DNA of 64,000 bases, taken from an uncultured Candidatus Saccharibacteria bacterium. GTDB lineage: Bacteria > Patescibacteriota > Minisyncoccia > Phycocordibacterales > JAKFXT01. Position 1 is the stretch's first letter; each line of letters begins with the position of its first letter. The position numbers were made by a program, and so were the translations under genes. The stretch lies in assembly GCA_964385825.1 (NCBI GenBank), contig CAYLPX010000001.1:84493-148492 (forward strand). The letters are read 5' to 3'. Positions 3,609 through 62,751 of this stretch are shown one piece after another. The notes below the pieces were generated by a model. The model was not told the origin of the DNA. It searched no databases and saw nothing but the letters and a program-made list of their open reading frames with translations.

Positions 3609-3615
3609 AAAAACA

Positions 3616-3637
3616 GAGCGCGCATTGCTGCGCGCTC
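3616..3637. terminator. hairpin between convergent genes (ABC transporter and the 3642..3830 ORF)
   Basis: gagcgcgca-ttgc-tgcgcgctc. Confidence 0.45.
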
Positions 3638-3641
3638 GGGA

Positions 3642-3830
3642 CTAATCCCAGATTGGAGGCATGTTACCAGTGTCCTCTGGCAATCCCTCGGTGCCCGTAG
3701 GTGTTTCGAGGGCATCAAGGCCATTCTGATGTATGAACTTCTTTCCCGACCCATGTTCACTAGGAGGGGTATTGGCTGCAGCTGGCGAGGGACTTCCGTC
3801 TCCAACTGCTGGAAAAAAAAGTTTCTGCAT
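3642..3830 (-). CDS. hypothetical small protein (62 aa), GC-rich island gene C
   Basis: ATG at 3830 has GAGGGG 7 nt upstream. An upstream hairpin gagccgcg..cgcggctc (3852-3872) separates it from gene B. Confidence 0.35.
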   Translation of the reverse strand: MQKLFFPAVGDGSPSPAAANTPPSEHGSGKKFIHQNGLDALETPTGTEGLPEDTGNMPPIWD

Positions 3831-3884
3831 TTTCATTCCCCTCATGAAAGCGAGCCGCGGGTTGCGCGGCTCGGGTGTGCGGGG

Positions 3885-4220
3885 TCAGTCAGCCTCGGCG
3901 GGGGCTAGCCCGTAAAACTCGGCTTCGTGACGGTGTTCTACTGCTGTCAGTTTTCCACCACGCAGCCACGGCTTCAGCACCTGGAACTCAGCCTGTTTCC
4001 TGCTGAGTGCTTCTCCTGCGAGCCGTTTCATTTCGCAGGCCATGGCAGCATTGCCCATCATGCGAATCTCGGCCGAACGTGTTGTTCGCGCCGAACCGCT
4101 CATGCCGACCAGGAATTCATCCAAAAGCTGGCTCATTGCCCGGCGAGTATTGCCGTTGCATTCCGTGACGAGCTCTTTGGCTCGACTCTTCACAATTTCA
4201 TCTTGGTTCTTGCTTTTCAT
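3885..4220 (-). CDS. hypothetical protein (111 aa), GC-rich island gene B
   Basis: ATG at 4220 with GGGAGGAAG SD. Codon usage has high GC3, unlike neighbouring genes. Its own terminator follows. Confidence 0.5.
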   Translation of the reverse strand: MKSKNQDEIVKSRAKELVTECNGNTRRAMSQLLDEFLVGMSGSARTTRSAEIRMMGNAAMACEMKRLAGEALSRKQAEFQVLKPWLRGGKLTAVEHRHEAEFYGLAPAEAD

Positions 4221-4401
4221 GCCACTTCCTCCCAAGGAAAAAACGACGATTGAAAAACATACCAGTAACGCTGAAAATAATTATACTACTAACCCCCCAA
4301 ATGTCAAATACTGCTATGGGGGTAAAAATAGGAGGGAAAATAAAAGGGGCGCGGCCGGATATTCTCGGTCGCGCCCTGGGGTGTCGTTGCATGTTGCCCT
4401 T

Positions 4402-4812
4402 TCAGCGAACCAGTGAAAGCCGGTGTCGCACACTTTTTTCGGAGGGGAGCACCTGGGTGGTTGCGCCCATTTTGAAGTTCTGGTGCACCCACGTTTCGAT
4501 TTCCCACAGGAGTTCCGGCAGGGGCGTGATGGCGCCATTCTCGGAGCGAACCATGGGGAAGTGGATGCTCAGAATCCAGGACCCGTCAGGGCCGCGTACA
4601 AGTTCGCTCGCCGCCTCGTAGGCCCGCAGTTCACGTCGGAACTTTTCGGTATCCCTTCTGTTGGCGTGGCCAGGGAGAGGGATGCGGCAGCCCACACGAG
4701 CCTCCTTTTCGAAGTTGGCGGGGAAGTAGATCTCCGCTTCAGCGCCCGACTTGTGGAGAAGCCCTCGTACTTCCCGTACGAAAGCTCTCCAGACAGACAA
4801 TATGATTTGCAT
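4402..4812 (-). CDS. hypothetical protein (137 aa), GC-rich island gene A
   Basis: ATG at 4812 with GGAGG 5 nt upstream. It is followed on the minus strand by hairpin 4347-4376 plus a T-rich run. Confidence 0.5.
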   Translation of the reverse strand: MQIILSVWRAFVREVRGLLHKSGAEAEIYFPANFEKEARVGCRIPLPGHANRRDTEKFRRELRAYEAASELVRGPDGSWILSIHFPMVRSENGAITPLPELLWEIETWVHQNFKMGATTQVLPSEKSVRHRLSLVR

Positions 4813-4886
4813 ACAAGCCTCCATTAAATGGTGGGTGGGAACAGGTGTTACTGGTTAAAAATAGTACAATAGAAGGGTGTATAAGT

Positions 4887-7454: not shown

Positions 7455-7484
7455 AAAAAAAGCGCGCCGCGAGGCGCGCTTTTG
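7455..7484. terminator. bidirectional terminator after rplU
   Basis: aaaaaagcgcgcc-gcga-ggcgcgctttt. Confidence 0.6.
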
Positions 7485-7508
7485 CGCTATGAGGCCCCCC
7501 TTGGGCTA

Positions 7509-7874
7509 CTAGCCTCTCCTGCGCAGGTGATGAGTCAGTGCCATGACACTGAAAACAAGGGTTGATATGTGGAAGGTGCAGTAGGCAATACTCCCGGCCA
7601 GCAGCCACACAACCATGTGGCTAAGAAGTTGCACTACAATGTCCGGATGCTCCATCCCCACATTCTTGATTGAAAGAATACCAATCAGGAACAATAGTGC
7701 ACAGTACACAAGGACAACCCTTTCCCCAGCCGTTTTCGCAGTTATCTCCTTTTCCGGGGCTAAATGTACAACCAGGATGGTGAGCCCCCAGAGGAGAAGC
7801 CCGAGATGGACCCCTCCTGTGGTGGCAATGATGACGAAGGTCTGGATTGACCAAGCAAATTCAAGCTCACTCAT
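7509..7874 (-). CDS. hypothetical polytopic membrane protein
   Basis: ATG at 7874 with AAGGAAGG SD. About 4 TM segments. It is translationally coupled to the upstream gene with a 1-nt gap. Confidence 0.5.
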   Translation of the reverse strand: MSELEFAWSIQTFVIIATTGGVHLGLLLWGLTILVVHLAPEKEITAKTAGERVVLVYCALLFLIGILSIKNVGMEHPDIVVQLLSHMVVWLLAGSIAYCTFHISTLVFSVMALTHHLRRRG

Positions 7875-7875
7875 C

Positions 7876-8223
7876 TCACACCTTCCTTTTTCGTACGAGG
7901 AGCAGAACAATGACAGCACTCCCGATTACGAGATATGCTCCTAAGCTGACAATGAGGCCATCTAAAAGAGCGTTCCCGATCATTTCCCCGCTCGGAGGAC
8001 CCACACCCTCATGGTGCGTGAGGCGGGTATAGGAATGAGTGAAGAAGACCCCGACGCTGAAGACGCCGGCGATGAGTAGCTGGAATTTCCCCCGCGTAAG
8101 TTTCAAAAAAGTCCTTACCTCCGACAGAATTGCGTCGATCCCGAAGGTAAAGGGCATTCCCATCACAGCAAGGGCCACAATCACTTTCCCGTGACCCGCA
8201 AGTACTTCCAAGATTTCAGGCAT
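7876..8223 (-). CDS. small membrane protein, possibly Mrp/Mnh antiporter subunit G-like (weak)
   Basis: ATG at 8223 with GAGGAG SD. Two or three TM segments. The motif YTRLTHHEGVGPPSG resembles the MnhG YxRxHAAGKxxTLG region. Confidence 0.35.
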   Translation of the reverse strand: MPEILEVLAGHGKVIVALAVMGMPFTFGIDAILSEVRTFLKLTRGKFQLLIAGVFSVGVFFTHSYTRLTHHEGVGPPSGEMIGNALLDGLIVSLGAYLVIGSAVIVLLLVRKRKV

Positions 8224-10528: not shown

Positions 10529-10588
10529 ACAACTCAGTAAGTTTTTCCGATCAACCTTTTGTGGCCTACGGGCCGAGGAGTAAAGAGG

Positions 10589-10891
10589 ATGTTCAATCTC
10601 GTCAATGCCAATCCCGAAAGGGATACCACGCCAGTCGTTCACGTAGAGCGGCTGGCGGACATCATTCACAGCATGCTGGGGGCGAGGATTGTATATCGTC
10701 CTTGGGAAGTGGCAGGGCCGTCCGAGCAGGATGAAATCCTGCTGCAGAAGGCGGAAGAAATCTGCGTGGTCACCGTGAAGGCGGGAGATCGCCGTCAGGC
10801 CTTTGAGGTCCATAACCTTGGGGCCCAATTCATCGGGCTGGTGAAGATTTTGAGTCAGCAGACCGGCTTCGAGTACCGCGCGGTATTCTGA
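10589..10891 (+). CDS. hypothetical protein (100 aa) in a GC-rich islet
   Basis: ATG is preceded by GAGGAGTAAAGAGG. Local GC is clearly above flanking DNA. A canonical terminator follows immediately. Confidence 0.45.
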   Translation: MFNLVNANPERDTTPVVHVERLADIIHSMLGARIVYRPWEVAGPSEQDEILLQKAEEICVVTVKAGDRRQAFEVHNLGAQFIGLVKILSQQTGFEYRAVF

Positions 10892-10909
10892 GACGGTACT
10901 CGGGTGGGT

Positions 10910-10942
10910 GCGCGCAGCAATGCGCGCATTTTTTTATTTTTT
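10910..10942 (+). terminator. intrinsic terminator (gcgcgca-gcaa-tgcgcgc plus T run), shared with the convergent cysS 3' end
   Basis: GC hairpin followed by TTTTTTTATTTTTT. Confidence 0.65.
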
Positions 10943-29545: not shown

Positions 29546-29616
29546 GAAATTTGCTGTTCAATTTTGGAAGGCGCGACCAATAAAAATTCGCGTCACCGAG
29601 TATAGGAGGGTCAGGA

Positions 29617-29874
29617 ATGACCGAGTTGGCAAGAAACCTGCCGGATAGTCCGGCGCGGTGCAATTGTGCCCCAGGGCACAGTCGTTGCGCTGGCAAGACC
29701 AGCAAGAACACGTGCCCAGGCATGGCAGTAACGCCCGTTCGGTGCGTTTCGCGGCACATGGACAAGGGGGTGGTGGGGTTTCGCCTGACAGTTTCTGTTC
29801 GGGCAGACGAGACCACCCATTTCGTCAGGTCGAACTGGCAGGGCGCAACCCCCGAAATCGAAGCTCGGGCCTGA
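29617..29874 (+). CDS. hypothetical Cys-rich small protein (85 aa) in a GC-rich islet (alternatively a structured ncRNA)
   Basis: AGGAGGG lies 6 nt before the ATG. The N-terminus reads CNCAPGHSRCAGKTSKNTCPG. A strong terminator follows. Composition is low-complexity, so protein coding is not certain. Confidence 0.35.
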   Translation: MTELARNLPDSPARCNCAPGHSRCAGKTSKNTCPGMAVTPVRCVSRHMDKGVVGFRLTVSVRADETTHFVRSNWQGATPEIEARA

Positions 29875-29888
29875 ATCGGCAATTCGGA

Positions 29889-29918
29889 AGCCGCGGCGTA
29901 CGCCGCGGTTTTTTTTAT
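29889..29918 (+). terminator. intrinsic terminator (gccgcggcg..cgccgcgg plus T8), abutting the aspS stop
   Basis: GC hairpin followed by TTTTTTTTATTT. Confidence 0.65.
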
Positions 29919-31244
29919 TTACTTACTGAGAAGTGTGTCTATGCGGTTAATGTCACGAGGGAAAAGTGTGGCTTCTTTTACATTAGCAAGGCCCAAAAAT
30001 TTCTGTGTTAAGCGTTCAAGTCCGATAGCAAGTCCTCCGTGTGGTGGCATACCGGTATCAAAGGCTTGGAGATAGAACGAGAATAGTTCTGGGTTAAGCC
30101 CCTTGTTTTTAAGGCCCTCAAGCATGAGCTCTCTGGTGTGGCGACGCTGTCCCCCGGTCGTTATTTCAACTCCACGGAATAGTAGGTCAAAGGACTTAGA
30201 AAAGCCTTTATCATTTTCATCCTCGTATGTGTAGAAGGGGCGCTTAGTAATTGGATAGTGAGTGATAAAAATAAAATCAGAATTATGTGTTTTCTTAGCC
30301 CACTCACAGAGCTGCCTTTCATGTTCTGGTTCAAGGTCTGGCTCCCCTACTGCTTTACCGCCAAACTCCTTCTCAATAAGTTCCTGGGCCTCGCGGAGTT
30401 TCATGGTAGGGATATTTTTTGGTACTACAGGGATTTCTGCAGCAAGAAGGGCGAATTCCTTTTCGCACGTGTTATGTAGATGCTTTGTTATGGCTATCAT
30501 CATGTCATTTTCAAGGCGCATGATATCTGTGTGGTCTTTAATAAAACCAAACTCTAAATCAAGAGAGGTGTATTCATTGAGGTGGCGGGAGGTGGCATGT
30601 TTTTCTGCTCGGAACACATTACCAATAGTGTAAACTCGTTCAAATACTCCCACCATAATCTGTTTGTAGAGTTGTGGTGAGGTAGCAAGACCGGCTTTGT
30701 GACCAAAGTGATCAATAGCGTATATAGCGCTTCCCCCCTCGGCATCACCCCCTACAATTTTAGGACATTGGAATTCTGTAAAACCGTTACTATCTAAAAA
30801 AGCATGAAAAGCTTTAATGATTTCACTTTGTACTTTAAAGATCGCATGACTCCTTTCACTGCGAAGGGTGTAGGGTTGGTTATCAAGAAAAGTATCTATA
30901 TTAAGTTCAGTACCGAGTTCAAAAGGTACTTCTGCCTTAGCAAGTACGCGTATAGCTTTTATTTCAAGTTCAATTGAACCATTCATAACTCCAGCCTTTA
31001 CCATTTTCTCTGGTCGTTTGTTTACCTGTCCCTCTATTTCAACTACCCATTCTGGTCGGAGGGTTTGTGCCACAGTGAGTGCTTCTTCATGGCTTGGCAA
31101 CACCACTCCTTGTACTAGGCCCGTGGCATCACGTATATCAAGAAAGATGAGCTTACCATGATCACGACGAATATGTACCCAGCCCTTTATGAGTGCGGTC
31201 TCCCCTACTTTCTTTTCTAAATCTTGAATAAATGTTCTTTGCAT
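29919..31244 (-). CDS. aspS: aspartate--tRNA ligase, short archaeal/type-2 form (class IIb)
   Basis: N-terminal OB fold (GWVHIRRDHGKLIFLDIRD). Class II motifs FRAE...RH and GLAIGLERL. At 441 aa it lacks the bacterial GAD insertion. Confidence 0.8.
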   Translation of the reverse strand: MQRTFIQDLEKKVGETALIKGWVHIRRDHGKLIFLDIRDATGLVQGVVLPSHEEALTVAQTLRPEWVVEIEGQVNKRPEKMVKAGVMNGSIELEIKAIRVLAKAEVPFELGTELNIDTFLDNQPYTLRSERSHAIFKVQSEIIKAFHAFLDSNGFTEFQCPKIVGGDAEGGSAIYAIDHFGHKAGLATSPQLYKQIMVGVFERVYTIGNVFRAEKHATSRHLNEYTSLDLEFGFIKDHTDIMRLENDMMIAITKHLHNTCEKEFALLAAEIPVVPKNIPTMKLREAQELIEKEFGGKAVGEPDLEPEHERQLCEWAKKTHNSDFIFITHYPITKRPFYTYEDENDKGFSKSFDLLFRGVEITTGGQRRHTRELMLEGLKNKGLNPELFSFYLQAFDTGMPPHGGLAIGLERLTQKFLGLANVKEATLFPRDINRIDTLLSK

Positions 31245-50688: not shown

Positions 50689-51252
50689 TTAGTTGGGTAA
50701 AAATGCCGCTTTGGCTTGCGTTAAAACCTCTCTATGCATCATCACGAGTGGAGCTTCTTTGCCAAGTTTTTCTTCAATGATTGCAAAAACCTCATCATGG
50801 AACCAGGCATATTGCGTAGGGTCCTTAATCAAAATCTTCTCAGGGTTTTCAAGAGCGCTTAAAAGATTATGGATTTTGTCAGCCGAAGCAATGAGCGCAG
50901 TATCTTCCCCAGCGTTTTTTAATTTCCCTATATAGAGCTCTTTGCGTGCACGCCATGAGGAGAGATGCTTATCCTTTTTTAAAAGTTCAGTCACGGTTAA
51001 AACTAGAGAGGCCACACGCTTACCTAAGTGCTCTTCTATTTTTTGTAAGGGATAATCAGTGTCCTCAAGTATGTCGTGGAGGAGGGCGGCTGAGATCACC
51101 TCTTCATCGGTACTGTGGTTACTTACCATACTCGCAACTGAGTAGAGGTGGCTGACATAAGGTAGTGGGTAATCATAGGCAGCGCGGTATATGCCGTCGT
51201 GGGCAGCCGTAGCTATTTTAATCGCTTTTTCTATTCTGGGAGTGTAATTCAT
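50689..51252 (-). CDS. HD-domain phosphohydrolase, RelA/SpoT-type (p)ppGpp hydrolase-like
   Basis: AAHDGIYR...HLYSVASMV...ALLHDILEDT matches the Rel/Spo HD domain signature. The start is taken 4 nt after the UDG stop. Confidence 0.6.
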   Translation of the reverse strand: MNYTPRIEKAIKIATAAHDGIYRAAYDYPLPYVSHLYSVASMVSNHSTDEEVISAALLHDILEDTDYPLQKIEEHLGKRVASLVLTVTELLKKDKHLSSWRARKELYIGKLKNAGEDTALIASADKIHNLLSALENPEKILIKDPTQYAWFHDEVFAIIEEKLGKEAPLVMMHREVLTQAKAAFLPN

Positions 51253-51256
51253 TAGG

Positions 51257-51862
51257 TTAAAGGAATTGCTGGAGTATAGAAAAGTCACGTTTCAGTTCAT
51301 CCTTTGTTTTATTGTTATACACGGCAACAGCTGGATGGTAAAGGGGAATGATTTTGACTTCTCCATAGGAAGTTTGAGCTTTGAACACTTTGCCGTGAAT
51401 TTTACTAATGGGTGCAAGGTCACTTTCGAGGTTGAATTTTTCCATAATGTACTTCATGGAATATCGACCTAAGGTAGCTAAAACCTTTGGCTTGATGATA
51501 GTAATTTGTCTATCAAGAAATGGGCCATAGACAGATATTTCTTTTGGTGTCGGGTCACGGTTTTCTGGCGGTCGGTCTTTTACAATATTAGTTATATATA
51601 CTTTTTCACGTGGGAGTTTAATAGAAGCTAGTAGTTCGTCGAGCACACGGCCAGAGGCCCCGCAAAATGGTTTTCCCGTTAGGGCTTCGTTTTTACCAGG
51701 AGCTTCACCTATAAACATAATGGAAGTATCAAAACTTCCTTCGCCGATGACGGGGAACACTTTATTTTTAATACGTTCGGCATAAAGAGGAGAGTTTTTA
51801 AGCACTAAAATTTCATCAGAAATTTCTTTCATATAAAGCTCCTTTTCCTCCCTTTTTTTCAT
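51257..51862 (-). CDS. uracil-DNA glycosylase, family 4
   Basis: GEAPGKNEALTGKPFCGASG motif. Confidence 0.8.
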   Translation of the reverse strand: MKKREEKELYMKEISDEILVLKNSPLYAERIKNKVFPVIGEGSFDTSIMFIGEAPGKNEALTGKPFCGASGRVLDELLASIKLPREKVYITNIVKDRPPENRDPTPKEISVYGPFLDRQITIIKPKVLATLGRYSMKYIMEKFNLESDLAPISKIHGKVFKAQTSYGEVKIIPLYHPAVAVYNNKTKDELKRDFSILQQFL

Positions 51863-51895
51863 AGGGTTAGTATACCAAAATGTAAAACCCGCTTG

Positions 51896-52336
51896 TTAGG
51901 CGGGTCTTCCTCCGTGGTCGCGGTTTGGTCGGCAGGGTGAACTTACGCGGTCCGGTCCCGCGTGTCCAGTTGCCGGGTTGGCGGCGATTGCCACACCGTC
52001 AGTGCGGCGCCGCGGTGGATCACGTGAATGGGACATGGGACGCTCGACTTTTCGAGTGACTGCGAAAGCTTCTACGGTCAAAAGGGAAATGTCAGGCGAT
52101 GGTAACACTGGCAGATCGAAGCCAAGGCGAAGCTCGTGCTCCTGCTTTGGCTCGGACTCAGTGAGTACCACTACTGGCAAGTTCGTCAGCTCTTTGATGA
52201 GCCTTAATTCTTGCCCGCCTTCGAGCGTTTGCGCGTCAACAATGACTTGTATGCCGCGCATATGTGCGAGAGCCTCTAGGGCTGCCAAATCAAACGGCCC
52301 AAGAAGGCCGCTACTGATGAGCAATACGCGCATCAT
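51896..52336 (-). CDS. hypothetical protein (146 aa), GC-rich. N-terminal part weakly resembles a degenerate receiver domain, followed by an Arg/Pro-rich tail.
   Basis: ATG ATG at 52336 with AAGGAGG 4 nt upstream. Promoter TTGTCA-17-TATGCT (minus strand, 52375-52403). Terminator hairpin at 51887-51905. PVVVLT-like block is present but the acidic pocket (DD) is absent. Confidence 0.4.
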   Translation of the reverse strand: MMRVLLISSGLLGPFDLAALEALAHMRGIQVIVDAQTLEGGQELRLIKELTNLPVVVLTESEPKQEHELRLGFDLPVLPSPDISLLTVEAFAVTRKVERPMSHSRDPPRRRTDGVAIAANPATGHAGPDRVSSPCRPNRDHGGRPA

Positions 52337-52438
52337 GGTGCCTCCTTTGTGGGTTGTGTACGAAACTAAAAAAGAGCATACCAGCAAAGCCCCCTTTTGA
52401 CAAGGAGATACGGTATAAGGAAGGTGCAAGCACAATAC

Positions 52439-52472
52439 AGTACGCATTCTCCCAATTGGGAGAATGCGTACT
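52439..52472. promoter_or_regulatory. perfect 34-bp palindrome agtacgcattctccc-aatt-gggagaatgcgtact upstream of the GC-rich gene promoter
   Basis: 15-bp arms with a 4-nt centre, read directly. There is no adjacent U run on the minus strand, so it is more likely an operator or protein-binding site than a terminator. Confidence 0.5.
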
Positions 52473-52516
52473 AAAATATTCCTTTTTTTATAAACTATAA
52501 ACTTCTCTGATACAAA

Positions 52517-52786
52517 CTACTTTATCGCTCCTTCTGCTTTAAGTAAGGCTCTCTTTTTCTCGGGGCCACCGCGGTTGTATTCTCCGATCTTGCCGTCACT
52601 CCGTATAACGCGGTGGCATGGCACAGAGGGGTCGTAATTATTTTTCATAATGGTTCCAACGGCCCTAGCCGCACCAGGATTACCAGCGTGCAGAGCAACC
52701 GCTCCGTAAGTCATAGTTTTCCCTTTGGGGATACTTCTAACCACTTTACGTACCCGTTCTTCAAAAAGAGTCTCTTGTTTTTTCAT
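52517..52786 (-). CDS. methylated-DNA--protein-cysteine methyltransferase, DNA-binding/catalytic domain only (89 aa)
   Basis: The PCHRVI active-site motif is retained. Confidence 0.75.
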   Translation of the reverse strand: MKKQETLFEERVRKVVRSIPKGKTMTYGAVALHAGNPGAARAVGTIMKNNYDPSVPCHRVIRSDGKIGEYNRGGPEKKRALLKAEGAIK

Positions 52787-52789
52787 AGC

Positions 52790-53569
52790 TTACTTTTTCT
52801 TGCGCAAATTCGCATCAGCCATGGCAGCTGCTTTGCGATAGGCACAGTATTGGCAGGTCTCACTGGGGTTTGGTAATTTTTCTTCTAGCAAACACTGTTT
52901 AATTTGTTTTAGTGTTTCTGGAATCCAGGATGGATCTCCTTTGTATGGTAACAGCACTACATCAAACTCTAGTTTGGCATCAAAGGCTTCCCTATCCTGC
53001 TTACCATTTACATACACAAAGTAACCAGTCTCTGATACTTTGAAGCCATTCTGTCTAAAGAGCCACTGATAGACTTCCATTTGCCTCTTGTATCCTATCT
53101 GCCATTCAGCATCGAGGTTTATTTCAGCCTCAGCGTCAGCCTTACTAGTTGCTTTGTAGTCAGCAATAATAAGTTCACCTTCTGGGTTTACCCACACATC
53201 ATCTATCCCACCGCGGATAATAAGATTTAGTTCCTTATCTAAATATTTTATGCCGTTGCGAAGGGCATCACGCCATTCATCCATACGATCGTCTTGTAGC
53301 GGCACAGCATCAAGGCCGTAGCTCTCAAGTAATGGATGCTTACTCTGAGCTTTGCGATGAATATCAAATTCTTTTTTAAGTAAGGCATCAACGGCATTGT
53401 TAAGGGTGAAGGGAAAAGAATCTGGTCGACCTATACCAAGTCGGCGATCAAGATAAAAGCAGCGAGCACACTCAAGAAAGAGGTCGATTTTGCTACGAGA
53501 AAGTTCAAAGGGCTCCTTACTTTCTGGATTAAATATTTTGTAAGTTTTAACTTTATAGAGAAATGCCAT
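52790..53569 (-). CDS. PD-(D/E)xK nuclease with Cas4-like Cys4 cluster (RecB-family exonuclease fold)
   Basis: GGIDDVWVNPEGELIIADYKAT gives a D...E.K core. Cys pairs CARC (N-terminal) and CQYC (C-terminal) match the Cas4/AddB Fe-S arrangement. Confidence 0.55.
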   Translation of the reverse strand: MAFLYKVKTYKIFNPESKEPFELSRSKIDLFLECARCFYLDRRLGIGRPDSFPFTLNNAVDALLKKEFDIHRKAQSKHPLLESYGLDAVPLQDDRMDEWRDALRNGIKYLDKELNLIIRGGIDDVWVNPEGELIIADYKATSKADAEAEINLDAEWQIGYKRQMEVYQWLFRQNGFKVSETGYFVYVNGKQDREAFDAKLEFDVVLLPYKGDPSWIPETLKQIKQCLLEEKLPNPSETCQYCAYRKAAAMADANLRKKK

Positions 53570-53616
53570 GGAGCAATAGGTAAAGTAATAAGCGGACAAA
53601 CAAAAAGAAAGCAGGC

Positions 53617-54117
53617 TTACTCTATGGGGTCGTGGCGAAGCTTTTCTTCAACTCCCCAGAGGGTAGAGAAGATAAAAAGGGTGAGCAGGGTTGTCATAAC
53701 AGCAATGGTGTAATAACCAAAAGCTACTGCAATACCTATACCATTAGCTACCCACATACCGGCAGCAGTAGTAACTCCTACCACTCTGTTGTCGTGGTAA
53801 ATGATGATTCCTCCACAAAGAAATCCTATACCCATCACAATACCAGCGGCCATACGCATCGGGTCGAAGTTGGTAAAGCCAATGAAGCGTTCTGTAGCGA
53901 GGAGTGAAATAATAACTAGAAGACAGGATCCCAAAGAAACGAAAGCGTATGTACGCATCCCCACCATTTTGTGCGATAGAGTACGCTCGGCTCCAATAAT
54001 GGCTCCAAGCCCCACCGCCGTTACCAGTTTTATAATAAGAGGAAGATTGGTAGTAAGGTAGGTTGCAAATGGTTCTGGGATCATAAATAGTGAGTTAATT
54101 ATAATGTATTTTGACAA
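53617..54117 (-). CDS. MgtC/SapB family membrane protein
   Basis: GAIIGAERTLSHKMVGMRTYAFVSLGS signature and four TM segments. Confidence 0.7.
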   Translation of the reverse strand: MSKYIIINSLFMIPEPFATYLTTNLPLIIKLVTAVGLGAIIGAERTLSHKMVGMRTYAFVSLGSCLLVIISLLATERFIGFTNFDPMRMAAGIVMGIGFLCGGIIIYHDNRVVGVTTAAGMWVANGIGIAVAFGYYTIAVMTTLLTLFIFSTLWGVEEKLRHDPIE

Positions 54118-54938
54118 AGAACCTTTCCTTCTTCAAGTACTTTGTTCATTTTTGCTTCACTCATGCCAAGTTTTTGAAGTGCTTCTCTATTCTCCCCTAC
54201 TGATTTGCAAAGAACAACCCCACCATTTAGGAGGTTAAGCTTCTCCTGCTTGTTTAAGGTAGTAAGACAGGTTATGGGATGTATTCCAGTTTGCTCTATA
54301 AGGTCTTGCAGGTTACCAAAACGTGGATAGGTCCAACTAAGTACCTTCATACCCTTACAATTGGCATACTGTACTGCCTGCTTAGTGAACTTAGTGTTGG
54401 TGATAAGCCATGCTTCGTCCACCGGTCGCTCGCCGCGCTCCGCTCGATACTTTTTAATATCGTCAATGCGAGAGTTTACATAGAGAGCCACTTTAACATC
54501 AGATTTAATACCGAGTTGGTTGTGATACTTTACTTCTCCCAAGATAGATTTTTGTTCATTTTCAGCCACTAGGTCTACTTCATGTTCCACGCAGGAGCCT
54601 TGGAGTACGACACCAGTTTCAACTTTAAAGCCCTTGGCCTTAAATATTTCTCCTATAAAATCCTCAAAAGGAAATCCTGATGGACCGAGCTCCATAACCG
54701 CACGTTTTAGTGAGTAACGCATAGCTGCAGGCTTTTCCAGTGAGCGTAAGTGGTCATAGGCTAGTTTGTAGATTAGGCCGGTAGGCATGCCGGGTTTTAT
54801 CTCGCTTTTGACCAGCTTAACGACAGCTGTAATTGATTTGTCATTAGCGCCAGAGCGGTGGAGGGAGTGAATGAGCTTGCTTACATCGAAAGCTTCTAGC
54901 TCACCATTTTCTTTCATGACGAGAAGTGGTTTTTTCAT
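54099..54938 (-). CDS. ATP-cone domain fused to a restriction-endonuclease (Mrr-like PD-(D/E)xK) domain
   Basis: An N-terminal ATP-cone (as in NrdR, about 90 aa) is followed by FEDFIGEIFKAKGFKVE...EVDLVAENEQKSILGEVKYH. Confidence 0.55.
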   Translation of the reverse strand: MKKPLLVMKENGELEAFDVSKLIHSLHRSGANDKSITAVVKLVKSEIKPGMPTGLIYKLAYDHLRSLEKPAAMRYSLKRAVMELGPSGFPFEDFIGEIFKAKGFKVETGVVLQGSCVEHEVDLVAENEQKSILGEVKYHNQLGIKSDVKVALYVNSRIDDIKKYRAERGERPVDEAWLITNTKFTKQAVQYANCKGMKVLSWTYPRFGNLQDLIEQTGIHPITCLTTLNKQEKLNLLNGGVVLCKSVGENREALQKLGMSEAKMNKVLEEGKVLCQNTL

Positions 54939-54951
54939 TTACTGTAGTATA

Positions 54952-54986
54952 GCAAAAAAAATGCCCGGCGCAGAACTCGCGCCGGG
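54952..54986 (-). terminator. strong minus-strand intrinsic terminator (cccggcgc-agaactc-gcgccggg plus a U8 run)
   Basis: Read directly. It terminates the transcript coming from mnmA. Confidence 0.65.
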
Positions 54987-55195
54987 ACTTGCTCGTTTTG
55001 AGGCTTGATTCAGCCTCTTTGCGTGTTGCATGCACTGATTGCGACAAGGGCCGCAAGGGTGCAGAGCAGAAAGAACGACCTGTACTGTGCAGGGCAGACC
55101 ATCCCCGCCGGGCCACATTGATACGTTTGGGGGCCTGTGGAAAGCCCCCCGATTCCTGCGTGCATGCCCATCTCCTTTGTGTTGAGACTTTTTTA
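54987..55195 (-). other. 209-nt GC-rich structured element between the mnmA stop and the terminator (3' UTR or independent sRNA)
   Basis: There is no plausible ORF; the candidates overlap mnmA or are low-complexity. Hairpins include gaggct-tgattc-agcctc and gggggc-tttccaca-gccccc. Local GC is clearly above flanking DNA. Confidence 0.3.
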
Positions 55196-56263
55196 TTATA
55201 CACCAGCTTCTAAAATAGCTCCACCAAGACATATATCTCCTTGATAAAAAACAACTGATTGGCCGATGGGGGCAAGGAGTGGCTCTTTGAAGGTGACAGT
55301 TTTGTTTTCAGTGTTTAGGATGGCAGGATAAAAATCGCCATGGTACCTAATTTGCGCTTCACAAGTTATTTCTTTCTCCCTATTTCCGCGAAGTATCAGA
55401 TTGCTTAGCTTGTAGTGTGAAGTATTGCTAGTAGCTTCCTCGGGGTTTTCTGAAACGGTTATGGTATTTTTCTCTATATCTTTCGCAATCACATAGTATG
55501 GTTTATCGAGGGTTGTTTTTTTAGTGATAGTAAAACCATGTCGCTCCCCCAGAGTATATAGCACAGACCCCTCATGAGTTCCTATGTCTTCTCCCTGTTC
55601 GTTTAGTACTAAGCCTTCACTTGTTGTAATGAAGTGCTTTAGAAAACTTTTCATATCAACATTGCTTACAAAGCAGAGGCCTTGGCTGTCCTTTTTGGTT
55701 GCTGTTACAAGATTAGCCCTTTCAGCAATTTTGCGAACTTCACTTTTTAACATTCTCCCAACGGGAAATAGGGTGTGAGCAAGAATGTCCTCAGTAAGTG
55801 TCCAGAGGAAGTAGACTTGATCTTTACCCGCATCTTTTGCCTTGAGTAACTCTAACTGTGGACTAATTTGTACGTAGTGGCCAGTTGCAACAAAATCAGC
55901 ACCCTCATTCCTAGCCCAATTATAAAAAGCCCCGAACTTTACTTCTTTGTTACAAAAGACATCAGGGTTTGGGGTCCTACCCTTTTGGTATTCAGCGAGG
56001 AGGTAATCAATTACTCCTTCTTTGTATTCCTTCTCTAAGTCTAGGGTTTTAAAAGGAATATTGAGCTTGGCGGCTACACGCATGGCGTCCAGTCGATCTT
56101 CCCTCCAGGTGCAGGGCACAAAATCTGGCTGCCAGACTTTTATGAACACACCAGTGACGTCATACCCAGCTTTTTTGAGCAGGTAGGCTGAAACAGAGCT
56201 GTCCACTCCGCCTGAGAGTCCCACATATACTTTTTTTCCTCGTCCTTCTTTCATGCGAGGCAT
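55196..56263 (-). CDS. mnmA: tRNA-specific 2-thiouridylase MnmA
   Basis: PP-loop SGGVDSS and full-length MnmA similarity. Confidence 0.9.
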   Translation of the reverse strand: MPRMKEGRGKKVYVGLSGGVDSSVSAYLLKKAGYDVTGVFIKVWQPDFVPCTWREDRLDAMRVAAKLNIPFKTLDLEKEYKEGVIDYLLAEYQKGRTPNPDVFCNKEVKFGAFYNWARNEGADFVATGHYVQISPQLELLKAKDAGKDQVYFLWTLTEDILAHTLFPVGRMLKSEVRKIAERANLVTATKKDSQGLCFVSNVDMKSFLKHFITTSEGLVLNEQGEDIGTHEGSVLYTLGERHGFTITKKTTLDKPYYVIAKDIEKNTITVSENPEEATSNTSHYKLSNLILRGNREKEITCEAQIRYHGDFYPAILNTENKTVTFKEPLLAPIGQSVVFYQGDICLGGAILEAGV

Positions 56264-57265: not shown

Positions 57266-58522
57266 TTAGTGCGGCAAATTAGTTGGAGCATCTGCCCTAC
57301 GCGAGGTAACACGATTAATCATCGGTGTTTGTAGTGTTGAACCAATAGGGTGGAAAATAGTGGCCATCTCTTCGGTGTTTAGAATAATAGGATGTTCTTT
57401 GTGTGGATTATAAAAGAACATACGACGACGATAAGCATCAACTGCATGGTGTTTAATTTTATCCTTACGGATATCTCTAAAGTCTTGCCATGGATAGTCA
57501 AAGGGGTCAGCTACATGGTTAACTGTAAAACCATTTAGATTTGTTGAGTTGTACTGCTTCATTAAAGTTAAAAGGGTTGCAATACGTCCCCCATTAAACT
57601 TTTCTGGTTCAGCAAAGTAGATTAGGCGTATACCCACATCAAAGGCAATTTTAGAAACGCTTCGTTCAATAGCCGCAAAAAGATCGGCTTCTCCTTTGGT
57701 GGGGATTCGTTCGAATTCAACTTGCTTATCACCTTGAGTTTTTGTCTGTGCGAGCATTTTGGCACGAAGTTCTGTAATAAGCGCCTTACCTTCCTCCTCA
57801 AGTGTTGTCTCACCAAACCATGTTCCATGCTTATGTTTTTTCTTGTGAGCAGTAAATACAATTTGGTACCATGCGTACTCTCCTTTTTGAAGGGTGCTTA
57901 GGTATTCAAGAAGGTGTGAGAATGGATCTATTTTGAACTCCTCTTTGGGATCCTTATCAAGCCCATAGTCCACATAGGTTTTGATTGGATATGGGTCTGG
58001 TTTCGTTAGGCCAAAGTTGTTACACCAAACCAAAAATTTCTTTTTATTATAATGAGGCATCATGTCGGTGTAATCCTCTACTTCATTTATCTCTATATTG
58101 GGATACTGCCCGTAAAACTGTGCCTCAACAAGATTTTTGAATGAAGCGCGTGTCCAAAAGTAAAAGTGAATGTTGCCCTCAAAAGAAACAATTTCAATTG
58201 AGTACCACGGACGCATTTTCCCGTCTATATACTTTGCGTACCAACTTCCCTCTCCCCCTGTCTGGTGGAGGTTGGATAACACTAGTTCCATAGCAAGTGG
58301 AGATTTGAATACTTCTGGAGGAAATTTTAGCTCAAGGAGGACGTATTTTTGCTTAGCAATAAAATCTGAGCGGATATAGACAATCCAAATATTCCAAAAC
58401 CCTATGCCAAGGGCTATTGGGAGCCAGACTGGTGAGGCAATAAACAGATAATGAAGCAGGGCACCAAACCAGTCGCTATAAAAGACTCCGAAGAGTGGCT
58501 GCCAAAAATCAGTAGATCCCAT
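57266..58522 (-). CDS. hypothetical membrane protein (2 TM segments plus a large soluble domain)
   Basis: Intact 418-aa ORF. No family recognised. Confidence 0.5.
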   Translation of the reverse strand: MGSTDFWQPLFGVFYSDWFGALLHYLFIASPVWLPIALGIGFWNIWIVYIRSDFIAKQKYVLLELKFPPEVFKSPLAMELVLSNLHQTGGEGSWYAKYIDGKMRPWYSIEIVSFEGNIHFYFWTRASFKNLVEAQFYGQYPNIEINEVEDYTDMMPHYNKKKFLVWCNNFGLTKPDPYPIKTYVDYGLDKDPKEEFKIDPFSHLLEYLSTLQKGEYAWYQIVFTAHKKKHKHGTWFGETTLEEEGKALITELRAKMLAQTKTQGDKQVEFERIPTKGEADLFAAIERSVSKIAFDVGIRLIYFAEPEKFNGGRIATLLTLMKQYNSTNLNGFTVNHVADPFDYPWQDFRDIRKDKIKHHAVDAYRRRMFFYNPHKEHPIILNTEEMATIFHPIGSTLQTPMINRVTSRRADAPTNLPH

Positions 58523-58612: not shown

Positions 58613-59650
58613 TTACGCAGCTACGTATTTTCCTTCTTTATTTTTCTTGAAAAACTTAGGGTTCTGGAGATTAACTGAAATAGTATTTTCTTTCACATAA
58701 CGCTCCTTCAAAACCTTCTCTACAATTTCTTGCTTGGTAAGTGGGCCGTGTTTCTTAATGATTTCGCGGATAACATCTTTTACAACACCAGCGGCATATC
58801 CCCATTCTGACAATGCATACAATCCTCGTCCAACCAAAACAAAACGTTTATCCTTAATAAGTTCGTTGTGGCAAGTAGCAACATGAGCTTCACGATCAAA
58901 AAGTTCTTGAATAGCCTTAGCAACTTCGGTGAAGTGCATAGGAGATCCATGACGACGAATAGCAAGATAGGCAAAATCACGCATACCCTTCGCTTTAATG
59001 TTAGCTGAATGAGCTGCTCCCCACTCCCCAAGTGGGTTACGATTTATTTTCTTAGAAAGTGAGAGCCAGCGCTTAGCAAGTTCTTTATCCTTATACTCTT
59101 CAGAGACTTCTTTTAGTTCATTCAAAAAGGTATCTATCATTTCAGCTTCAGGAATAAGAGCATCGTCTTCAAGTGACTCATAGAGTCTCTTAAGGGATCC
59201 TTCGATCTTGTTAGCGAGCGTATCGTCAGTAAACCAGCGGTGGTGGAAATGCTCATCCTCCTTGCGCTTCTTAAAAGCGTCTCCAAGCACAAGCATAAAA
59301 TGAATACAGTTTTGTGTGCCTGGATCATCGCTAATTGCCTTAAGGAAATGCGCTTCAGAGACAATAGAGCCCATTTCTTTCATGGCGCGAGCAAGATCAG
59401 AAAGAGCTTCAACTTCTTTGGTATAAGCCGGAGACTTACGGATTACACCAAAAGAGTAGTTTTCGATTTGGCGAACACGCTCACGAGTGATTTTGTAGGT
59501 CTTACCAATGCTTTCAAGGGTCATGTGCTCAGAGGTTTTACCAAGTCCGTAACGGTTGGTGATAACGTCCCGAGCACGTAGAGGAAGCGCCCCGAGGAGG
59601 CGCTTAACGACTTGCTTTGGCTTAAAATTAAGTGTGACCTTCATAATCAA
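58613..59650 (-). CDS. sigma-70 region-4-like HTH domain protein with a C-terminal winged-helix-like domain (putative transcription factor)
   Basis: LKRLLGALPLRARDVITNRYGL...TLESIGKTYKITRERVRQIE is a strong match to the sigma70 region 4 signature. Regions 2 and 3 are absent. Confidence 0.55.
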   Translation of the reverse strand: MIMKVTLNFKPKQVVKRLLGALPLRARDVITNRYGLGKTSEHMTLESIGKTYKITRERVRQIENYSFGVIRKSPAYTKEVEALSDLARAMKEMGSIVSEAHFLKAISDDPGTQNCIHFMLVLGDAFKKRKEDEHFHHRWFTDDTLANKIEGSLKRLYESLEDDALIPEAEMIDTFLNELKEVSEEYKDKELAKRWLSLSKKINRNPLGEWGAAHSANIKAKGMRDFAYLAIRRHGSPMHFTEVAKAIQELFDREAHVATCHNELIKDKRFVLVGRGLYALSEWGYAAGVVKDVIREIIKKHGPLTKQEIVEKVLKERYVKENTISVNLQNPKFFKKNKEGKYVAA

Positions 59651-59868: not shown

Positions 59869-62751
59869 TTAGATAATGATATTAAGAACTTTGCCTGGAA
59901 TGTAAATGGTACGCTTTATTTCTCCCGCTATCCACTTAGCAATGGAATCTTCCCCTTTGGCCGCTTTAAGTGCCTCTTCTACAGGAGCTTCACTACCTAC
60001 AGTAATAACCCCACGGGCTTTTCCATTGATAGAAACAGAAATAGTGACAGTATCAGTCTTTAAGTATTTAGGATTAAAGACAGGCCACTTCTCGAGGTGA
60101 ATTGATTTCTTATTTCCAAGTTCTTGCCAAAGTTCCTCTGTTACATGTGGGGCAAATGGAGCAAGAAGACGCAGGAATATTTGATACTGCTCTCTTGTTA
60201 CTGTTGGATTATGCTCCATTTCATTGAGTAGAATCATGAGCTGGCTAATAGCCGTATTCATTTTAAGCCCCTCAATATCCTCACTAACCTTTTTTATGGT
60301 TTTGTGAAGTAACGGTAAGAAAGCTTCGGTATTGTGGTTCCGACAATCACGGCAAGTTTCCTTAAGTGGAACTCCAATATAAAACTGCCCAATGTTAAAT
60401 ACCCTTTCGATGAATCGCCTGGAGCCAGCCATGCTGTCTCCATCCCAGGCAATAGGTTGATCAAATGGTCCCATGAACATTTCAAAGAGACGTAGTGTGT
60501 CAGCTCCCAAAGTTTCAACGATAGTATCGGGGTTAATAACATTACCCTTTGATTTGGACATTTTAGCACCACCCTTAGCTAAGATAAGGCCATGACTTGT
60601 ACGCTTTTTATAGGGTTCACTAGTTGGAACAAGCTTTAAGTCGTAAAGAAACTTATGCCAAAAACGTGAATACAAAAGATGGAGTGTGGTGTGTTCCATT
60701 CCCCCGTTATACCAATCAACCGGCGTCCAGTAGGAAAGAGTTTTTTTACTCGCAAACTCTTTTTTATTTTGTGGATCGGCGTAGCGTAAGAAATACCATG
60801 ATGAGCCAGCCCACTGTGGCATGGTGTCTGTTTCGCGTCTTGCTGGACCCTTACACTTTGGGCAGGTAGTTGTTATCCACTTCTCCATGAGAGAAAGCGG
60901 TGACTCTCCAGTACTGGTTGGTTTGTAACTTTTAACTTTAGGAAGGACAACGGGGAGATTTTTTTCGGGTACAGGGACAATGCCACAGGTTTCGCAGTGA
61001 ATGATTGGTATTGGTTCACCCCAGTAGCGCTGACGAGAAAAAATCCAGTCGCGTAATTTGAAGGAAATTTTCTTTTTGCCTAAAGTTGCTTCTCTAATTT
61101 TTACTTTAGCCTCTTCGCTGGTAAGCCCGGTGAAGGGGCCAGAGTTAATGAGGACGCCGCTTTCGGTGTACACACTATCTTCCTTCTCCCACCGTGCTAG
61201 CCAATCAGCAAGTTCAGCATGAACTACTTTTGGATACACTATTTCTTCCTTACTGAACCATTGTAGATCGTAAGCATCCCCCTCTTCTTTGGTTCTCTCT
61301 ACTACAGTCTCATCAAGCAAATCAAACATGACGGCTTGTGTGAAAGCTATACGATTCTGATCTTTATGAGCAGCAAAATATTCTGCGCGTACCTGTCCTC
61401 CTAAAACTTTTATAAACTTTAAGTTTGTGTACCCTGTTTCTTCCGCCACTTCTCTTTTAGCAGCAGTTACAACATCTTCCCCGGCTTCTACCCCGCCCAT
61501 AGGAAAAGTAATCCAGGGCTGGGCTTTCCATTTGAGGAGTAAGTATTTATTGGTCTGGGGGTTACGAACAATGCAGTGAACATTTTGTCTTTCAACAACT
61601 CTTTTACCTTCTCGTGGTGGGTTGTTTTGATCGACTCGATTTGGTACCACTACTTCTTTTATGGGAAGATTGTGAGCTTTGGCAAAAGCGTAATCACGTT
61701 CATCATGCGCGGGAACGGCCATAATGGCCCCTGTTCCATAATGTGCTAAGACATAATCCGCTATAAAAATTGGCACTGTCTCTTTTGTGCCGGGGTTTAT
61801 GGCTACAACACCCTCAAGCTGTACACCCGTCTTTTCTTTGCCTTCTGCTGTTCTTTCAATATCCTCCTTTGCAAGCGCTGCCTTTTGATATGCTTCCAAA
61901 GCCCTTTGATTAGTAATAGCTGGTGCTAATACTTTTAAGATGGGATGCTCTGGAGCAAGTACAACATAAGTAGCGCCAAAGAGCGTGTCTGGCCTTGTAG
62001 TAAAAACTTCAAGTTTGGCTAATACATCCTGGCCCGCATTAGCAATAGGAAAGGTTAGTAAGGCCCCTTCGCTTTTTCCTATCCAGTTACGTTGCTGGAT
62101 TTTAATTTTTTCTAAATAATCAACAGAGTCTAGATCTTTGTCCAAGCGCTCAGCATATTTAGTAATAGCAAGCATCCATTGCTCTCGCTCACGCTTCTCG
62201 GTTGGTGTTCCACAGCGCTCGCACTTCCCATCTATGACTTCTTCATTAGCTAAGCCCACCAGATCCTTCGGACACCAATTAACTACGGTACGAGCTTTGT
62301 AGGCTAAACCCTTCTTTAGTAACTGTAAAAATATCCATTGCGTCCATTTGTAGTAAGCCGGATCGGTAGTATTAACCTCACGACTCCAGTCAAAAGAAAA
62401 ACCAAGTCTTTGGAGTTGCTTACGAAAATTGGCTATATTTTTCTTGGTTTGAATGGCGGGATGAATACCTGTTTTAATTGCATAGTTTTCAGCCGGAAGT
62501 CCAAAAGCATCCCAACCAATCGGAAAAAGTACGTTATACCCCTCGCCTCGCCGTTTGCGAGCGACAATGTCCATAGCGGTATTGCTACGAATGTGACCAA
62601 CGTGTAAACCCTCTCCCGAAGGGTATGGGAACTCAATAAGACCGTAGAATTTTTTAGTTTTTGAGGGGAAGTTGGCCTTACCAAGGTTTTCCTTCTTCCA
62701 AACTGCCTGCCATTTCTTTTCAATCCTTTTGTGGTTATAGGTTCTAGCCAT
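59869..62751 (-). CDS. leuS: leucine--tRNA ligase carrying an inserted NUDIX hydrolase domain (about aa 371-531)
   Basis: HIGH (HVGH) and KMSKS are present. The TTRPDT editing region is intact. The insert contains a complete Nudix box GGVEAGEDVVTAAKREVAEETGY. Confidence 0.9.
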   Translation of the reverse strand: MARTYNHKRIEKKWQAVWKKENLGKANFPSKTKKFYGLIEFPYPSGEGLHVGHIRSNTAMDIVARKRRGEGYNVLFPIGWDAFGLPAENYAIKTGIHPAIQTKKNIANFRKQLQRLGFSFDWSREVNTTDPAYYKWTQWIFLQLLKKGLAYKARTVVNWCPKDLVGLANEEVIDGKCERCGTPTEKREREQWMLAITKYAERLDKDLDSVDYLEKIKIQQRNWIGKSEGALLTFPIANAGQDVLAKLEVFTTRPDTLFGATYVVLAPEHPILKVLAPAITNQRALEAYQKAALAKEDIERTAEGKEKTGVQLEGVVAINPGTKETVPIFIADYVLAHYGTGAIMAVPAHDERDYAFAKAHNLPIKEVVVPNRVDQNNPPREGKRVVERQNVHCIVRNPQTNKYLLLKWKAQPWITFPMGGVEAGEDVVTAAKREVAEETGYTNLKFIKVLGGQVRAEYFAAHKDQNRIAFTQAVMFDLLDETVVERTKEEGDAYDLQWFSKEEIVYPKVVHAELADWLARWEKEDSVYTESGVLINSGPFTGLTSEEAKVKIREATLGKKKISFKLRDWIFSRQRYWGEPIPIIHCETCGIVPVPEKNLPVVLPKVKSYKPTSTGESPLSLMEKWITTTCPKCKGPARRETDTMPQWAGSSWYFLRYADPQNKKEFASKKTLSYWTPVDWYNGGMEHTTLHLLYSRFWHKFLYDLKLVPTSEPYKKRTSHGLILAKGGAKMSKSKGNVINPDTIVETLGADTLRLFEMFMGPFDQPIAWDGDSMAGSRRFIERVFNIGQFYIGVPLKETCRDCRNHNTEAFLPLLHKTIKKVSEDIEGLKMNTAISQLMILLNEMEHNPTVTREQYQIFLRLLAPFAPHVTEELWQELGNKKSIHLEKWPVFNPKYLKTDTVTISVSINGKARGVITVGSEAPVEEALKAAKGEDSIAKWIAGEIKRTIYIPGKVLNIII

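Follow-up and report, generated by a model that had tools for sequence, protein, structure and literature searches.

An ATP-cone/Mrr-type nuclease fusion conserved in Patescibacteria and Bacteroidota is a candidate nucleotide-regulated nuclease

This work concerns a gene in which an ATP-cone domain is fused to an Mrr-type endonuclease, located in a 64,000 nt stretch of DNA (hereafter the window) from an uncultured Candidatus Saccharibacteria bacterium (contig CAYLPX010000001.1, positions 84,493 to 148,492). The fusion gene (54099-54938, minus strand, 279 aa) is the first of four consecutive open reading frames (ORFs) which occupy positions 52517-54938 of the minus strand, and their coordinates in the ORF list are exactly those given in an initial annotation made from the sequence alone. 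The three genes which follow it on the same strand encode an MgtC/SapB-family membrane protein composed of the membrane domain only (53617-54117, 166 aa), a Cas4/RecB-like PD-(D/E)xK nuclease with a CxxC...CxxC pattern (52790-53599, 269 aa), and a single-domain O6-alkylguanine-DNA alkyltransferase (MGMT; 52517-52786, 89 aa). The fusion protein itself is composed of an ATP-cone domain (residues 1-82; 54693-54938, minus strand), an Mrr/AF1548-type PD-(D/E)xK nuclease core (residues 88-205; 54324-54677, minus strand), and an AF1548-like helical C-terminal domain of (HhH)2-like type (residues 206-279 and the stop codon; 54099-54323, minus strand).

All three domains score above their Pfam cut-offs, with 26.3 bits for the ATP-cone (PF03477; cut-off 25.8), 27.2 bits for Mrr_cat (PF04471; cut-off 21), and 27.7 bits for AF1548-like_C (PF22357; cut-off 23.9), and the fusion proposed in the initial annotation is thereby upheld; no NCBIfam model matches the protein. 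PF03477 is carried by 107 of the 120 closest relatives, other family members reach ATP-cone scores of 35.7-39.9 bits, and a profile of the fusion cone retrieves the cones of NrdR and NrdA among PDB sequences. Alignment to Escherichia coli NrdA with hhalign (93% probability) pairs K9, G12, E15, K21, T53, and I56 of the fusion protein with K9, G12, E15, K21, T55, and I58 of NrdA. Because of the PF03477 matches in the relatives, the profile matches to NrdR and NrdA, and the residue pairing with NrdA, we conclude that residues 1-82 do form a genuine ATP-cone, although the Pfam score is marginal; the beta-hairpin and four-helix cone fold is present in this part of the protein. Pfam detected neither the Mrr_N winged-helix reader, the N-terminus being the ATP-cone, nor any CARF or SAVED domain.

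Residue conservation was assessed in an alignment of 24 relatives with 49-88% identity to the window protein. The cone residues K9, G12, E15, F17, K21, T53, and I56 do not vary within the family, and they occupy ligand-contacting positions of the cones of ribonucleotide reductase (RNR) and NrdR. Residues K9, E15, and K21 correspond to K53, E59, and K65 of E. coli NrdR, and mutagenesis of NrdR has shown that both the binding of nucleotides and the oligomer switch depend on the equivalents of V7, K9, E15, and K21 (PMC12176259). In the core the catalytic triad D122, E135, and K137 is invariant together with the upstream E92, which would argue for a working enzyme, and the TNTxFT..A motif typical of the Mrr family is present after the core strands. 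Residues 94-273 are homologous to AF1548 (PDB 1Y88; E 1e-31), a protein for which the GOS paper predicted a nuclease activity of restriction type with D38, E51, and K53 as catalytic residues (PMC1821046), and D122, E135, and K137 of the fusion protein are the equivalents of these residues. The nearest structural analogues besides AF1548 are Can2, Card1, Cdn1, and NucC, all of them PD-(D/E)xK nucleases gated by a sensor domain. The anatomy of the fusion protein is that of a sensor followed by a cutter and by a non-specific DNA or RNA clamp. Since the triad and the cone contacts are strongly conserved and the nearest structural analogues are sensor-gated nucleases, nucleotide-gated cleavage, which the initial annotation had suggested, appears from homology and residue conservation to be the most economical reading of this architecture.

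Other features of the protein should be mentioned. Five residues from the core and the C-terminal domain (C116, H119, H139, C194, and C244) are invariant across the family and could possibly form a metal site; by pairwise alignment C116, C194, and C244 are also present in AF1548. Four family members (P0132, P0200, P0228, and P0239) carry roughly 30-120 extra residues, placed in a variable loop of the nuclease core where the HMMER matches split after approximately query residue 162-169. No Pfam domain was found in these four inserts.

The family is large. Clusters at 90% identity passing E 1e-5 number 3,159, those at 50% identity passing E 1e-30 number 445 (almost all of 275-290 aa), and at least 597 GTDB species carry a member. 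Among the matches listed, the carriers were Patescibacteria (Paceibacteria-type), Bacteroidota (Flavobacteriia, Cytophagia, Saprospiria, and Bacteroidales), and one plasmid of the Chlamydiota. Neither a set of 50,697 phage records nor IMG/VR yielded a homologue. Database entries are labeled only "restriction endonuclease" or "ATP cone domain-containing protein"; the fusion architecture is already visible in the databases and so is not itself new. Family size, conservation, the fixed position in Patescibacteria, and the nucleotide-catabolic operon described below are undescribed in the literature searched, in which the review PMC4390871 names "endonuclease" solely in its reference list. Across the same genome pairs the median identity of the fusion protein is 47%, as compared to 50% for MnmA, 42.5% for MltG, and 58% for AlaRS. 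The fusion protein evolves about as slowly as the neighboring housekeeping genes, and this conservation is unlike the usual behavior of defense genes.

The genomic context was analyzed in 59 Patescibacteria-type loci and 20 Bacteroidota loci, with tblastn counts over 80 loci. The Patescibacteria-type loci share a block in the order DUF8128, mltG, mnmA, fusion gene, variable genes, and alaS. The mnmA gene is immediately upstream of the fusion gene in 34 of the 59 loci, and tblastn placed it close upstream in 54 of 80. The next gene follows at a median gap of 5 nt and, in the 59 loci, encodes MgtC in 15 cases, a Cas4-like protein in 12, a YfbR-like HD_3 5'-deoxynucleotidase in seven, and DUF7282 in another seven. 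When up to four genes downstream were considered the counts were 22 for Cas4-like, 18 each for MgtC and AlaRS, and 17 for family 4 uracil-DNA glycosylase (UDG4), with HD_3 (10), MGMT (9), PCMT (7), and M3 peptidase (7) being rarer. None of Cas4-like, MgtC, UDG, or MGMT was found within four genes downstream in the 20 Bacteroidota loci, and no link to nrd genes was seen in any neighborhood examined. The "repair cluster" of the initial annotation is therefore a recurrent neighborhood but not a fixed system, and the MgtC/Cas4-like/MGMT set is a lineage-variable addition to a conserved block running from mnmA through the nuclease gene to alaS. Upstream of mltG-mnmA this block also includes, in the window, a gene for a 345-aa protein with Sigma70 region 4 and HARE-HTH domains (58613-59650, minus strand) and, as the next gene, that for DUF8128 (57266-58522).

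A different set of partners is found outside Patescibacteria. In a plasmid of Criblamydia sequanensis (Chlamydiota; locus L084, 6995-11602) and one of Pontibacter (Cytophagia; locus L085, 1972-6597) the fusion gene heads a four-gene operon with overlapping or abutting junctions, in which the ATP-cone protein is followed by a metallo-beta-lactamase (MBL)-fold hydrolase, a thymidine-phosphorylase-family protein, and a ribose-phosphate pyrophosphokinase. Three Flavobacteriia loci contain these four genes together, and in 9 of the 20 Bacteroidota loci the fusion gene is followed by the beta-CASP gene alone. The hydrolase carries Beta-Casp and RMMBL domains, the phosphorylase is of the archaeal type (TIGR02645/PRK04350 family) and related closely to AMP phosphorylase, and the kinase, which is similar to phosphoribosyl pyrophosphate (PRPP) synthetase, belongs to the PRK07199 subfamily. 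Flanking genes outside Patescibacteria include those for universal-stress protein (Usp), PPK2, PFK, class-I aldolase, type-II GAPDH, 2-hydroxyacid dehydrogenase, and NDH-2, as well as phosphoketolase, glycogen phosphorylase (glgP), and acetate kinase, and give these loci a flavor of energy limitation and fermentation. The plasmid operons adjoin either phosphoketolase, glgP, and acetate kinase or 2-hydroxyacid dehydrogenase. In Bradyrhizobium diazoefficiens a trio of MBL, PRPP-synthetase, and thymidine-phosphorylase genes (bll3115-3117) has been reported to be induced by microoxia at both the transcript and the protein level (PMC6515984).

In the window the four-gene unit is bracketed by two terminator-like hairpins on the minus strand. 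One of these lies 5' of the fusion gene and forms the end of the transcript of mnmA and the adjoining spacer (54964-54986; 9-bp stem with eight GC pairs and a T8 tract), and the other follows the MGMT gene and closes the unit (52438-52473; 16-bp perfect stem). A tentative -10-like element TATACT, read directly from the sequence, is placed 7 nt ahead of the fusion-gene ATG (54946-54951, minus strand); a two-hexamer promoter scan did not call it. The same arrangement of TATACT, 7 nt, and ATG is found in an 88%-identical relative (L001, about 7985-7990), and in neither genome is there a Shine-Dalgarno sequence before the ATG. This spacing, together with the absent Shine-Dalgarno sequence in both genomes, suggests that the fusion-gene mRNA may be leaderless. 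As the hairpins bracket the four genes and TATACT precedes the first ATG, the fusion, MgtC, Cas4-like, and MGMT genes plausibly form one transcription unit. The initial annotation had also placed a family 4 UDG and a Rel/Spo-type HD hydrolase immediately upstream. Both identities stand (UDG at 51257-51862, TIGR00758 at 195.7 bits; RelA/SpoT-type HD_4 hydrolase at 50689-51288, confirmed by Pfam), but on the coding strand the two genes are downstream of the unit, past the 16-bp hairpin and a GC-rich orphan ORF.

The partners of the fusion gene in the window are as the initial annotation had described them. MGMT matches PF01035 (DNA_binding_1) at 3e-30 and TIGR00589 at 80 bits, and retains the catalytic cysteine within a VPCHRV motif of which P56-C57-H58-R59-V60 is conserved in 11 relatives. 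With its 89 residues it is without the N-terminal domain of Ogt and Ada and aligns only to the C-terminal part of full-length models. The Cas4-like protein, with a probable start at M11 (53569), passes the Pfam thresholds for both PDDEXK_1 (5e-15) and Cas_Cas4 (PF01930; 1e-5), while its score with TIGR00372 (cas4) is 31.5, below the cut-off of 65. Its two cysteine pairs (C44/C47 and C249/C252), D134, D147-Y-K149, and Q173...Y177 show a conservation of at least 95% across 22 relatives; the cysteines follow the pattern CxxC...CxxC and not the C...CxxCx5C Fe-S pattern of Cas4. It had no sequence match in PDB, and no CRISPR-like repeats were found across 40-64 kb of the window. From these sequence features the 269-aa protein is assigned to the RecB/Cas4 nuclease superfamily and not to CRISPR Cas4. 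MgtC matches PF02308 at 7.6e-32; gene callers put its start at 54084 (155 aa), as in identical contigs.

Two GC-rich spacers adjoin the unit. That between mnmA and the fusion gene (54964-55195, minus strand) is 230 nt long with approximately 61% GC; it includes a terminator of its own and, preceded by an AAAGGAG site, an ORF of 53 aa (55010-55171). Three metagenome contigs contain an identical copy, but neither the 88%-identical relative nor the other Patescibacteria loci have this spacer, mnmA there lying directly against the fusion gene. Its RNA fold is only modestly better than that of shuffled sequences (z -2.5). The possibility that it is a riboswitch or small RNA controlling the nuclease is disfavored by this z score and by its not being kept in the 88%-identical relative. 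The second spacer holds the orphan ORF (51896-52336, minus strand, 146 aa; approximately 60% GC versus approximately 43% in the genome), with a AAAGGAGG ribosome-binding site and a terminator at 51908-51884. This ORF has no match in Pfam, NCBIfam, or PADLOC, nor by tblastn in 80 related loci, and could be a lineage-specific gene or a non-coding insert. Rfam found no match in either spacer (whole window at gathering thresholds; 51800-55300 at E-value thresholds). Short islands of high GC content (56-64% in 200-nt windows) are also present at 1348-1578, 3610-4848, 7457-8186, 10546-10942, and 29546-29963, the sequence outside such islands being 42-45% GC; comparison of the two spacers with these islands showed no sequence similarity. 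Elsewhere in the window, the leucyl-tRNA synthetase gene (59869-62751, minus strand, 960 aa) encodes a NUDIX hydrolase domain (residues 388-517) which directly follows the match to the editing domain (residues 221-376).

The explanation we favor is that the fusion protein is a sequence-non-specific nuclease of three domains, regulated by adenine nucleotides and acting in nucleic-acid turnover tied to nucleotide status; we hold this account with about as much confidence as doubt. The N-terminal ATP-cone would sense adenine nucleotides, the Mrr/AF1548-type PD-(D/E)xK core would cut, and the C-terminal (HhH)2-like domain would grip nucleic acid through its backbone. By analogy with the characterized cones of RNR and NrdR, binding of ATP/ADP as opposed to dATP would rearrange the contacts between cones, and the resulting oligomer switch could lead from a state in which nuclease and DNA-binding surfaces are sequestered to one in which two catalytic cores are able to engage the substrate, or in the reverse direction. 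In the genome of the window the fusion gene would be expressed from its own start signals and co-transcribed with MgtC, the Cas4/RecB-like nuclease, and the minimal MGMT. Its most likely role would be a controlled turnover of nucleic acid which depends on the nucleotide or energy state of the cell; this would be a function in salvage or stress, overlapping with repair, and not one in restriction. Such a role is suggested by the operon partners in two other phyla and the HD_3 deoxynucleotidase neighbor in Patescibacteria, and by the non-specific HhH-like tail and the housekeeping-like evolution. A more specific proposal, which we put forward only tentatively, is that the nuclease is gated by energy charge or adenine nucleotides and opens a conserved and horizontally mobile route from nucleic acid to pentose phosphates in hypoxia or starvation, in which cellular or imported nucleic acid would be degraded by way of the beta-CASP nuclease, the nucleoside monophosphate (NMP) or nucleoside phosphorylase, and the PRPP-synthetase-like enzyme, and that in Patescibacteria, which are poor in biosynthesis, it has become a core gene which meters the salvage of DNA or RNA.

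The recurrence of repair genes downstream keeps a role in DNA repair or recombination as the main rival to this turnover reading. The protein could be a structure-specific endonuclease with an HhH tail, like NucS/EndoMS, Hjc, or XPF, which works with UDG, MGMT, and the Cas4/RecB-like protein in the genome maintenance of Patescibacteria and is coupled by its cone to the availability of dNTPs. These neighbors, however, vary between genomes and are absent in Bacteroidota and Chlamydiota, where the nucleotide-catabolic partners are conserved, and MgtC, DUF7282, PCMT, and M3 peptidase are equally frequent in the same slot, which thus has the appearance of a permissive insertion site; we regard a dedicated repair role as unlikely. 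Of the defense or stress effector put forward in the initial annotation, the stress half fits better, because in other phyla the gene heads a nucleotide-catabolic operon amid universal-stress and fermentation genes. As a defense nuclease the protein would act as a type IV restriction enzyme of the Mrr kind, or else as an effector of abortive infection which responds to ATP/dATP pools distorted by phage. The catalytic domain is indeed that of the Mrr family, the structural neighbors include Can2, Card1, NucC, Cap4, MspJI, and Shedu, and two homologues are plasmid-borne, but these plasmid copies lie in metabolic operons. PADLOC matched no defense system and returned only a weak hit to the ZorD nuclease domain (E 6e-4). 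No methyltransferase, CRISPR array, or defense genes are nearby and no defense-island neighbors were seen, the phage and IMG/VR collections hold no homologues, the chromosomal position is fixed, the substitution rate is that of a housekeeping gene, and in place of a reader of DNA modification the protein has the cone at its N-terminal end and a tail resembling HhH, all of which makes a defense function improbable.

We give equally little credence to a regulator of the NrdR kind, in which the nuclease fold and the HhH domain would only bind DNA and control the downstream genes according to the adenine-nucleotide load. The fusion gene is always the first in its unit, and NrdR, the best-understood free-standing cone protein, does work in this manner (PMC9110341, PMC12176259); yet the genes downstream are wholly different between lineages, and the invariance of E92, D122, E135, and K137 across phyla points to selection for catalysis. 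The converse alternative of a constitutive nuclease with a degenerate cone, retained as a structural or oligomerization module without ligand control, could account for the marginal Pfam score and for the loss of the canonical Arg10, but the seven invariant residues at ligand-contacting positions and the scores of up to 39.9 bits in other family members leave it with a similarly slim chance.

Several points weigh against the favored account of a nucleotide-regulated turnover nuclease. The ATP-cone score of the window protein barely clears the Pfam threshold, and the canonical arginine which follows the cone lysine is not conserved, position 10 being E, A, Q, or S; its loss may mean a ligand preference unlike that of the RNR and NrdR cones, or weak binding. 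Neither the window nor any of the Patescibacteria loci examined contains the beta-CASP, phosphorylase, or PRPP-synthetase partners, so that the link to salvage is transferred from other phyla, and the Bradyrhizobium trio was matched to the operon partners through shared names. The conserved gene order in Patescibacteria may reflect mere vertical inheritance. Finally, no publication on the ATP-cone nuclease family was found in the literature searched.

ATP-cones have, in that literature, been studied experimentally only in ribonucleotide reductases and in the repressor NrdR. A nuclease under the control of an ATP-cone would carry this allosteric module into nucleic-acid degradation, and would give a direct and testable link between nucleotide pools and the turnover of DNA or RNA. 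Should the route gated by energy charge prove true, it would represent a new class of nucleases gated by a metabolite and the first case in which the output of an ATP-cone lies beyond deoxyribonucleotide synthesis. Patescibacteria are not known to make nucleotides de novo and are hard to study, so that a nuclease which is both conserved and regulated makes a good candidate for the way in which they manage salvage. The operon with beta-CASP, phosphorylase, and PRPP-synthetase-like genes in culturable Flavobacteriia offers a tractable genetic entry.

The fusion protein was compared with several known systems. With AF1548 of Archaeoglobus fulgidus, a structural-genomics protein, it shares the homologous core and the AF1548-like C-terminal domain, but AF1548 has only 199 aa, with approximately 22 residues before the core and no ATP-cone. 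With NrdR and the RNR cones (NrdA, NrdB, and NrdD) it shares the sensor fold and the key ligand-contacting residues K9, E15, and K21 and, with NrdR in particular, the joining of a cone to a nucleic-acid-binding output; this output, however, is a PD-(D/E)xK nuclease and not a Zn-ribbon or a reductase, and the arginine next to K9 is not conserved. Card1, Can2, and Cdn1 (CARF), NucC, and Cap4 (SAVED) sense a cyclic-oligonucleotide alarm, whereas the cone of the fusion protein presumably senses bulk adenine nucleotides, and no Cas10 or CD-NTase gene is near the fusion gene in 80 loci. Mrr_cat and the TNTxFT..A motif are shared with Mrr and the type IV enzymes, from which the fusion protein differs in having no Mrr_N winged-helix reader and in its N-terminal cone, HhH-like tail, and housekeeping-like genomic behavior. 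Because there is neither a reader domain nor a defense context, the fusion protein does not qualify as a full Mrr-type restriction enzyme, nor is it a CARF or SAVED effector. An ATP-cone has not previously been described as the sensor of a nuclease in the literature searched, and by its sequence the fusion protein would be best placed as a sensor-gated PD-(D/E)xK nuclease of this kind.

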